From Escherichia phage 21, in the sequence record M23775.1: 1,688 nucleotides of DNA, one strand, 5' to 3'. A program made the position numbers and the translations under genes. This document shows, piece after piece, positions 1-1,688 of the stretch (positions within the stretch are counted from its first letter, which is position 1; the number at the start of each line of letters is the position of its first letter). A model generated the notes under the pieces. That model was not told the DNA's origin and did no database searches. It was given only the letters and a program-made list of their open reading frames with translations.

Positions 1-12
1 GGGCGGCGACCT
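1..12 (+). other. cos cohesive-end sequence (12-nt 5' overhang of cosN); left terminus of a linear lambdoid virion genome
   Basis: Window begins GGGCGGCGACCT, identical to the lambda left cohesive end as I recall it. The following ~30 nt (cgcggtttttcactatttatgaaaatttt) also closely match lambda's cosN-proximal sequence, with a few substitutions. Confidence 0.8.
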
Positions 13-77
13 CGCGGTTTTTCACTATTTATGAAAATTTTTCAGGGAAAATCGTGTCGGTACTTCTCGAATATAAC

Positions 78-91
78 TTTTTGTTTTTTTT
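78..91. other. T-rich tract (TTTTTGTTTTTTTT), possible intrinsic bend / IHF-assisted bend region of cosB
   Basis: Directly visible run of 13 T in 14 nt. Lambda cosB has an IHF site (I1) between R sites, but I could not find a clean WATCAANNNNTTR match here, so the function is speculative. Confidence 0.25.
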
Positions 92-111
92 AATATTGCA
101 TCCGTAAAGGT

Positions 112-160
112 CCGACATGAAAGTGTCCGAAAATGCCTTTTTCTGGCGTTTTCATGTCGG
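112..160. repeat. 11-bp perfect inverted repeat (CCGACATGAAA ... TTTCATGTCGG) with a 27-bp spacer
   Basis: Arms at 112..122 and 150..160 are exact reverse complements. GTCCGA also recurs directly at 110..115 and 124..129. Candidate pair of oppositely oriented terminase-binding (R-like) sites. Confidence 0.7.
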
Positions 161-177
161 GCCTTGTATTTGATAAT

Positions 178-205
178 GGGTTGTTTTCATGGGGTTGTTT
201 TCATG
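178..205. repeat. perfect 14-bp tandem direct repeat (GGGTTGTTTTCATG x2) ending on the nu1 start codon
   Basis: 178..191 and 192..205 are identical. The ATG of copy 2 (203..205) is the nu1 start by homology; the ATG of copy 1 (189..191) is out of frame with it. Confidence 0.9.
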
Positions 206-751
206 AAGGTTAATAAAAAGAGGCTTGCCGAAATTTTCAACGTGGACCCGCGGACGATTGAACGCTGGCAGTCTCAGGGACTCCCTTGCGCCTCCAAAGG
301 TAGTAAGGGCATTGAATCTGTATTTGATACTGCCATGGCAATTCAGTGGTATGCGCAGAGGGAAACTGATATCGAAAACGAAAAGCTCCGCAAAGAACTG
401 GACGATTTGCGTGCGGCAGCGGAGTCAGATTTACAACCCGGCACCATTGACTATGAACGCTACCGGCTCACAAAAGCGCAGGCAGATGCGCAGGAACTGA
501 AAAATGCCCGTGAAGACGGAGTAGTGCTGGAAACTGAACTGTTTACCTTCATTCTGCAACGTGTGGCACAGGAGATTTCGGGGATACTTGTGCGTGTGCC
601 GTTGACATTACAGCGTAAATATCCGGACATTTCACCATCACACCTTGATGTGGTGAAAACTGAAATCGCGAAAGCCTCCAATGTTGCAGCTAAGGCCGGT
701 GAAAACGTGGGCGGGTGGATCGATGATTTCAGACGCGCAGAAGGCAGCTAA
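203..751 (+). CDS. nu1: terminase small subunit (lambda gpNu1 homolog), 182 aa
   Basis: The translation from 203 begins [12 protein letters not shown]..., against lambda Nu1 MEVNKKQLADIF..., and similarity continues over the full length (for example [28 protein letters not shown] against lambda [28 protein letters not shown]). Length is 182 aa against lambda's 181. Stop is TAA at 749..751. The ORF track shows the frame open from a TTG at 164, and ATG 176 is in frame, but homology supports ATG 203. Confidence 0.9.
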
Positions 752-790
752 GGGTGGATCGATGATTTCAGACGCGCAGAAGGCAGCTAA
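713..790. repeat. perfect 39-bp tandem duplication spanning the nu1 stop and the A start
   Basis: 713..751 and 752..790 are identical (GGGTGGATCGATGATTTCAGACGCGCAGAAGGCAGCTAA). Each copy carries an in-frame ATG for the A reading frame (723 and 762) and a TAA in the nu1 frame. Confidence 0.9.
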
Positions 791-1688
791 TGCAGCCGGT
801 GCGATAGCTACAGGGCTTTTATCTCTCATTATTCCTGTTCCACTGACGACAGTTCAGTGGGCCAATAAACATTATTACCTTCCTAAAGAGTCGTCTTATA
901 CCCCGGGGCGATGGGAAACACTGCCGTTTCAGGTTGGCATCATGAACTGTATGGGCAACGATCTGATTCGCACGGTTAACCTGATTAAATCTGCCCGTGT
1001 TGGTTATACAAAGATGTTGCTGGGAGTGGAGGCTTATTTTATTGAGCATAAATCACGCAACAGCCTTCTTTTTCAGCCCACGGACTCAGCTGCTGAAGAT
1101 TTTATGAAATCTCATGTTGAGCCAACGATAAGGGATGTTCCTGCATTGCTGGAGCTGGCTCCATGGTTCGGAAGAAAACACCGCGATAATACGCTCACCC
1201 TGAAGCGTTTTTCCTCCGGTGTGGGGTTCTGGTGTCTGGGTGGTGCGGCAGCAAAAAACTACCGTGAAAAATCCGTGGATGTGGTCTGTTATGACGAGCT
1301 TTCCTCGTTCGAACCGGATGTTGAAAAAGAGGGTTCGCCAACCCTGCTGGGGGATAAACGTATTGAGGGCTCTGTATGGCCAAAATCCATTCGCGGCTCG
1401 ACGCCAAAAATCAAAGGCTCCTGTCAGATCGAAAAAGCCGCTAACGAGTCGGCACACTTCATGCGTTTTTATGTGCCCTGTCCGCACTGTGGGGAGGAGC
1501 AGTATCTGAAATTTGGCGATGATGCCTCGCCTTTCGGTCTTAAGTGGGAGAAGAATAAGCCAGAAAGTGTTTTCTACCTTTGCGAGCATCATGGCTGTGT
1601 GATCCATCAGTCTGAGCTTGACCAGAGTAACGGGCGGTGGATCTGTGAAAACACGGGCATGTGGACCCGTGACGGCCTGATGTTTTTC
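723..1688 (+). CDS. A: terminase large subunit (lambda gpA homolog), 5' part; ORF runs off the 3' end of the window
   Basis: Hand translation in the frame with codon starts divisible by 3 gives ...[83 protein letters not shown]..., closely matching lambda gpA (..[35 protein letters not shown]...KSARVGYSKMLLGVYAYFIEH...[12 protein letters not shown]). The frame is open from 657 to 1688, checked codon by codon to 1112 and at 1470..1598 and 1680..1688. Candidate starts are ATG 723 (first repeat copy) and ATG 762 (second copy, giving an N-terminal length closest to lambda); ATG 681 is less likely. Start is therefore uncertain by 39 nt. Confidence 0.88.
987..1010 (+). other. Walker A-like ATPase motif KSARVGYT within the A homolog
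   Basis: Codons 987..1010 encode KSARVGYT, corresponding to lambda gpA KSARVGYS, which I recall as implicated in the packaging ATPase centre. Confidence 0.6.

Follow-up and report, generated by a model that had tools for sequence, protein, structure and literature searches.

The left end of the phage 21 chromosome carries an 11-bp perfect inverted repeat upstream of the terminase small subunit gene, and the question raised by this locus is whether the repeat forms a structure in DNA or RNA or reflects a set of oppositely oriented protein-binding sites. In the 1688-bp window, by which we mean the whole stretch of DNA that was analysed, CCGACATGAAA (112-122) and TTTCATGTCGG (150-160) are exact reverse complements of 11 bp each with a 27-bp spacer between them, and the perfect pairing ends there, extending neither inward nor outward. 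Perfect inverted repeats with arms of 11 nt or more and a spacer no longer than 60 turned up in 3 of 300 dinucleotide shuffles of the whole 1688-bp window, and the same criterion returned 15 hits in 2000 shuffles of bases 1-202. With an equally good repeat in only ~1% of shuffles, a chance origin is unlikely. The repeat is the perfect core of a longer element, a 59-nt quasi-palindrome (107-165) in which two 27-nt arms, 81% complementary, flank a 5-nt centre.

The source of the sequence was determined by global alignment to X02501.1, entitled 'Bacteriophage 21 DNA for left end sequence with genes 1 and 2', to which the window is identical at all aligned bases; it departs from that record only by a 14-bp and a 39-bp perfect tandem duplication, both outside the repeat. 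Megablast against deposited phages likewise returned phage 21, at ≥99% over the full length. Because the alignment to X02501.1 differs only by the duplications, window positions 1-177 correspond directly to phage 21 coordinates. Throughout the cosB region the sequence is the same in the phage 21 records X02501, M81255 and OL657228, and nothing differs. The complete phage 21 genome (OL657228) annotates the cos nicking subsite at 1-12, R3, I1, R2, R1 and a small terminase CDS at 189-737; M81255 carries the same R boxes, labelled 'putative', together with the IHF sites I2 and I0; and three IHF sequences are marked in X02501. Both arms of the repeat lie inside the annotated cosB R2 and R1 protein_bind features, in agreement with the preliminary description, made from the letters alone, which had placed the region in cosB. 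The element is already known, being annotated base for base in GenBank, and the repeat as first stated rediscovers a textbook element of lambda-like DNA packaging and matters little by itself.

The subsite order in the window is cosN, I2, R3, I1 (IHF), R2, R1 and gene 1. The left cohesive end, which is the right half of cosN (GGGCGGCGACCT, 1-12, plus strand), is identical to bases 1-12 of the phage 21 records and is the cos nicking subsite of OL657228. It is followed by the I2 zone (30-44), an IHF-like site or static-bend segment between cosN and cosB that corresponds to the 'I2 site' at 196-210 of M81255 and has a weak IHF consensus match at 30-42. R3 (AATCGTGTCGGTACTT, 50-65, plus strand), a putative gp1 (TerS) binding box, is annotated in OL657228 as a 'gpNu1 binding site' and also in M81255. 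The annotated IHF site I1 (74-86, minus strand) is present in the three phage 21 records and matches WATCAANNNNTTR with one mismatch. R2 (107-122, minus strand), a putative gp1 binding box that holds the left arm, is described in OL657228 as being 'in opposite orientation to R3 and R1' and is annotated in M81255 as well; R1 (plus strand), the putative gp1 box that holds the right arm, spans 150-166 in OL657228 and 150-165 in M81255. Between these two boxes, inside the quasi-palindrome, lies the partly self-complementary spacer (123-149), which reads GTGTCCGAAAA TGCCT TTTTCTGGCGT. Further downstream, I0 (172-186), an IHF-like site that overlaps the gene 1 ribosome-binding region, corresponds to the 'IO site' at 338-352 of M81255, with a consensus match at 174-186 carrying one mismatch. 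Gene 1 (203-751, plus strand; its start is position 189 in phage coordinates) encodes the terminase small subunit gp1 (TerS), and the 5′ part of gene 2 (762-1688, plus strand) encodes the annotated terminase large subunit gp2 (Pfam GpA_ATPase, E 1.4e-57). The R boxes at 50-165 thus adjoin a 12-base lambda-like cohesive end and lie upstream of terS, in three copies of which R2 is inverted relative to R3 and R1, and this is the arrangement of a complex cosB. The consensus scan for IHF gave the one-mismatch match at 74-86 and none in 123-149, between the arms, so that an IHF site in the spacer was rejected; over the whole window the scan was not enriched (15 matches vs 17 expected from shuffles), so that the match at I1 is by itself no proof of IHF binding.

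Next, the R boxes were compared with one another. The 8-bp core CRTGTCGG is present in exactly three copies, at 53-60 (+), 112-119 (-) and 153-160 (+), where base composition predicts 0.09 for the 1688-bp window. Its third copy, CGTGTCGG at 53-60, is the core of R3, in direct orientation and outside the palindrome. Searching instead with TTTCATGTCGG at ≤2 mismatches gave four matches vs 0.74 expected, a number reached in 0 of 200 shuffles; this 11-mer search misses R3, which has three mismatches, and the 8-bp core recovers it. Over the annotated boxes (107-122 vs 150-165), the reverse complement of R2, TTTCATGTCGGACCTT, agrees with R1 at 15/16 positions, and R3 agrees with R1 or R2 at 11/16 each. 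Since R2 is inverted relative to R1, the two boxes are read as an inverted repeat. These comparisons uphold the view of the arms as winged-HTH small-subunit sites facing opposite ways, as they coincide with R2, annotated in 'opposite orientation', and with R1. The repeat first reported, of 11 bp with a 27-bp spacer, is accordingly real, as its exact complementarity and the shuffles bear out; its description was incomplete, leaving out the 16-bp boxes matching at 15/16, the 59-nt quasi-palindrome and the third core copy in R3. We are highly confident that the arms are the conserved cores of cosB R2 and R1, and that the inverted repeat is a by-product of the orientation of these sites and not a structure-forming element. 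The steps of this reading that were observed directly are the identity with phage 21 cosB, the three copies R3(+), R2(-) and R1(+), the conservation of the arms and their co-variation with the TerS helix, the last two of which are given below.

Conservation was assayed on relatives sampled as 115 further loci encoding TerS relatives, among which 20 unique 21-type left ends were used for the comparison within the group. In these 20 left ends, each arm had 3 variable columns out of 11, with mean non-consensus fractions of 0.018 and 0.014, while the spacer (123-149) had 18 out of 27 (0.148) and the flank at 166-188 had 15 out of 23 (0.157), so that arm variability was ~10 fold below that of the spacer within the 21 group. 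Whether the arms are kept in close relatives had been proposed beforehand as a check, and their near-invariance in the 20 unique left ends favours function. Single-base variants inside the arms are rare among the relatives. L055 carries one in the R1 arm (TTTCACGTCGG) and L077 carries C112 to T in the R2 arm; in both, the other arm shows no compensating change and the perfect repeat is broken on one side. The R2-R1 element is also widespread, as 583 of the 5426 complete E. coli genomes contain the 83-bp R2-R1 segment at ≥90% identity.

Comparison between groups indicated that the three R boxes always change jointly, and TerS residues 17-24 with them, in four combinations of core and helix across ~100 lambda-like cos loci. 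The R core CATGTCGG goes with RTIERWQS in 21 and IdasGreatGrand; CGTTTCC goes with RTIQNWQE or RTIQNWQD in lambda, 434 and prophages of Citrobacter, Kluyvera and Enterobacter; CAGATCC goes with RTITAWQS in a third group (L091-L105); and ATGTCGT goes with RTIDRWQT in PhiR5_1. R3 lies outside the palindrome, and therefore its co-variation cannot stem from selection for base-pairing; joint change of the trio is what three copies of one protein recognition sequence would be predicted to show. The comparative data thus provide a clean illustration, drawn from sequence only, of R boxes and the TerS recognition helix co-evolving as packaging-specificity modules, and they add a third specificity class (CAGATCC/RTITAWQS). 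The members of this class, prophage contigs from IMG/VR, carry CAGATCC in R3, R2 and R1 alike and the full R3-I1-R2-R1 layout, and their spacer is significantly self-complementary (z ~ -3). The CAGATCC-type cosB had no full-length match among deposited phages in near mode, where the best match covered 43%.

The protein predicted to read these boxes was also characterized. Gp1 belongs to the family Phage_Nu1 (PF07471, E 1.9e-81) and has the N-terminal wHTH expected of a TerS that serves a complex cosB. PDB entry 7LWR (8 chains, 'Terminase, small subunit') matches gp1 residues 1-54 (window 203-364) at 100% identity, and therefore the DNA-binding domain of exactly this protein has a solved structure; the same residues are homologous to the lambda gpNu1 wHTH domain 1J9I, a dimer, and to 7LW0. 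The entries 7LXS and 7LW0 are the matching domains of two other lambda-like TerS proteins, and a 2026 review table that places 7LW0 under lambda TerL is at odds with the 7LW0 sequence.

According to the literature, cosB is arranged as R3-I1-R2-R1 in lambda, 21, phi80 and Gifsy-1, R2 pointing the opposite way from the other two boxes, and in the published model a TerS dimer is docked on R3 plus R2, spanning the IHF bend (PMC4669245, PMC9026076). R3 is the most critical box, and lambda R1 is accessory and non-critical (PMC4669245, PMC9026076). Specificity is set by R3 bp 56 and 59 in lambda and 21 and by TerS residues 20 and 24, and cosB-bound TerS anchors TerL for accurate cosN nicking (both PMC4669245, PMC9026076, PMC4856287); lambda I2 is a static bend (PMC4856287). 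The lambda cosB, which works with gpNu1 and IHF, is like the window in subsite order, orientations and spacing; lambda TerS is homologous to gp1 (52% identity, Phage_Nu1, wHTH), and lambda R2 and R1 also form a long quasi-palindrome, with 25-nt arms. The two R boxes are identical at 16/16 positions in lambda (PMC9026076) against 15/16 in phage 21, and the box-to-box spacing of R2 and R1 is 43 bp in both 434 and 21. Lambda differs from phage 21 in the R core (CGTTTCC vs CATGTCGG) and in the recognition helix (RTIQNWQE vs RTIERWQS), and therefore the two have mutually exclusive packaging specificity (PMC4669245).

By homology with lambda, a mechanism for the phage 21 site may be proposed. Each R box is a copy of one asymmetric recognition sequence with the core CATGTCGG; IHF would bend the DNA at I1, bringing R3 and R2 opposite each other, to be bound by a gp1 dimer through its two wHTH motifs. 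R1 would be bound by one more gp1 DNA-binding domain from the terminase oligomer, which would strengthen the assembly in an accessory manner. The cosB-bound gp1 would then anchor gp2 for an accurate nick at cosN and would retain the new left end until the prohead docks. For phage 21, the binding of gp1 to R2 and R1, the IHF-dependent docking on R3 and R2 and the accessory part of R1 are inferred from lambda and the literature, in which TerS binding to R2 and R1 and its need for packaging go back to footprinting and genetics in lambda and to lambda/21 specificity genetics (cited in PMC4669245 and PMC9026076). In the accepted model, it is R3 and R2 that make up the functional inverted pair, bracketing I1 (74-86), and not R2 and R1. 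The parallel that the preliminary description had drawn, with R sites bracketing an IHF bend, is thus misplaced for this pair, as I1 lies between R3 and R2 and not between the arms.

Other explanations of the pair were weighed against the reading as protein sites. As RNA, the segment 107-165 folds at -35.5 kcal/mol (z -9.3), with ~26 pairs and ~23 nt upstream of the gene 1 ribosome-binding site, and it might also act as a hairpin in the late transcript that crosses cos into gene 1, with an effect on terminase translation or on the stability or processing of the mRNA (RNase III might cut it, for instance). Long palindromes around R2/R1 are found not only in 21 but also in IdasGreatGrand, 434, lambda and CAGATCC-type cos sites, and the spacer by itself folds significantly in some lineages (L082, z -4.2; CAGATCC group, z ~ -3). 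Against this, the R boxes, already explained by protein recognition, account for most of the stability, and the spacer-only fold, ranging from z -4.2 to +0.2 across lineages, reaches only ~ -1.2 in phage 21 (p ~0.1) and ~0 in the 434-, Kluyvera- and L111-type sites. An RNAalifold consensus of 18 diverse R2-spacer-R1 segments kept 12 pairs, all within the R boxes and 9 changed on both sides, and contained no spacer pair; the literature consulted makes no mention of processing at cos. Such an RNA role is hence quite improbable. Pairing kept by compensatory change outside the protein-recognition sequence, which would mark a structure-forming palindrome, was not found, and a hairpin or cruciform as the primary function was rejected, as fold stability stems from the R boxes, spacer-only folds are weak and inconsistent, and the consensus drops the spacer. 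The cruciform or hairpin option of the preliminary description likewise gains nothing from the comparison, since across lineages the R-box arms alone stay complementary and the spacer does not. In a more specific form, the repeat would be an extruded DNA cruciform or a single-stranded DNA hairpin recognised by its shape by terminase or a host protein. The ssDNA fold of 107-165 (-19.3 kcal/mol, z -7.6), with its 5-nt loop and extended arms, is in favour of this; yet the arms are imperfect (81%) with bulges that disfavour extrusion, what is conserved inside a specificity group is the arm sequence and not merely the pairing, changes in the arms are shared by the direct-repeat copy R3, and the spacer pairing is not conserved. 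We regard this shape-based role as very unlikely. An intrinsic terminator was also rejected; one weak site was predicted (142-161, 8 pairs, 3 GC; 1 vs 0.5 ± 0.9 in shuffles), and the long hairpin is followed by GTATTTG, with no T-run. A chance repeat devoid of function, for which the ~1% of shuffles holding an equally good repeat could be cited, has a negligible probability and is effectively refuted by the conservation data, given that the arms are near-invariant in relatives while the flanks diverge, coincide with annotated sites and are retained in the 583 E. coli genomes.

Two further possibilities concern what R2 and R1 might do as a pair. The literal proposal of the preliminary description was that they are a symmetric pair for one gp1 dimer, in which case the A-run and T-run of the spacer could provide a bend or flexibility independent of IHF. 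From lineage to lineage the spacers between R2 and R1 are unrelated in sequence, but time and again they hold an A-run and a T-run ~10 bp apart (GAAAA..TTTTT in 21, lambda and 434; TTTTT..GAAAA in the CAGATCC group), and this recurrence suggests that curvature or flexibility, not a specific sequence, may be what is kept. R2 and R1 are also the best-matched pair, at 15/16 here and 16/16 in lambda (PMC9026076), and the 43-bp spacing is common to 21 and 434. [quoted passage not shown] In the other possibility, the R boxes are protein sites and 107-165 is additionally maintained as a 59-nt quasi-palindrome with a structure-level role, which may be a late-mRNA hairpin tuning the terminase genes or a spacer that bends by itself and allows R2 and R1 to be bridged by a second TerS dimer. 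Such an added role would fit because R3 is far less like R2 or R1 than these two are like each other, the palindromes recur, and in several lineages the spacers, unrelated in sequence, are significantly self-complementary; we consider it improbable all the same. A pure model of three independent sites requires neither the R2/R1 likeness (15/16 vs 11/16 to R3) nor a self-complementary spacer, and for this reason an extra constraint or a palindromic origin of the R2-spacer-R1 unit is possible. The likeness inside the long palindrome could reflect an inverted duplication at its origin, a preferred geometry for a second TerS dimer, or a role at the RNA level, and is of modest interest for packaging specialists. 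For the preferred reading of the arms as R-box cores, a structural role is not needed to account for the repeat and is unsupported as a conserved feature; it may be a lineage-specific extra.

The comparison was extended to the 'simple' cosB of N15, which consists of a single R3 with an accessory rR2 inside terS. N15 resembles the window in its lambda-like cohesive end and in a homologous TerS, which recognizes an R box located where R3 lies (PMC4669245); it differs in that the inverted R2-R1 pair and the IHF site, both part of the complete complex cosB of the window, are missing. In L103, a prophage of the CAGATCC group (IMGVR_UViG_2529293040_000025, ~520-620), a precise ~100-bp deletion fuses the R3 core to the R1 core and takes out I1, R2 and the spacer, so that terS starts at bp 82 from the cohesive end. 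This locus is a natural instance of the R3xR1 unequal crossover that was proposed as the origin of the N15 simple cosB (PMC4669245), and this natural fusion supports the proposed origin of N15-type simple cosB sites.

Among the sampled loci, L021-L028, L032-L039 and L041-L042 all encode a TerS ~52-53% identical to gp1, as lambda Nu1 is, and some of the contigs, those that keep the cos left end, have a cos identical or nearly identical to that of lambda (the L025 group of six). They are often short or low-coverage contigs in assemblies of Kitasatospora, Paenibacillus, Bradyrhizobium, Chromatium, Shewanella, Limosilactobacillus and others. Lambda-like contigs in assemblies of such unrelated taxa are almost certainly lambda DNA contamination.

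Finally, the two tandem duplications by which the window differs from the phage 21 records (178-205 and 713-790) are both absent from those records; every phage match splits around them, and both terminase reading frames are intact. The first (178-191/192-205) is a perfect 14-bp duplication of GGGTTGTTTTCATG, from the gene 1 ribosome-binding site through the ATG, whose boundaries are the RBS start (178) and the end of the start codon (191) annotated in X02501. It creates a mini-ORF, MGLFS*, which starts at the first ATG and overlaps the real gene 1 start, and its junction had no match in the 5426 complete E. coli genomes. The second (713-751/752-790) is a perfect 39-bp duplication that begins with the gene 2 RBS and ends with the gene 1 stop codon, a stretch where genes 1 and 2 naturally overlap and which is the RBS-to-stop span of X02501; its junction had no match in phages, IMG/VR, metagenomes, complete E. 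coli genomes or plasmids. The ATG of its first copy (723) is in frame with the gene 2 start (762) and would add a 13-aa N-terminal extension. The letters at the duplication junction are GCAGCTAA followed by GGGTGGATC. The two duplications look like an artefact of record construction by concatenation, or a deliberate, engineered separation of overlapping genes, and not like a natural variant.
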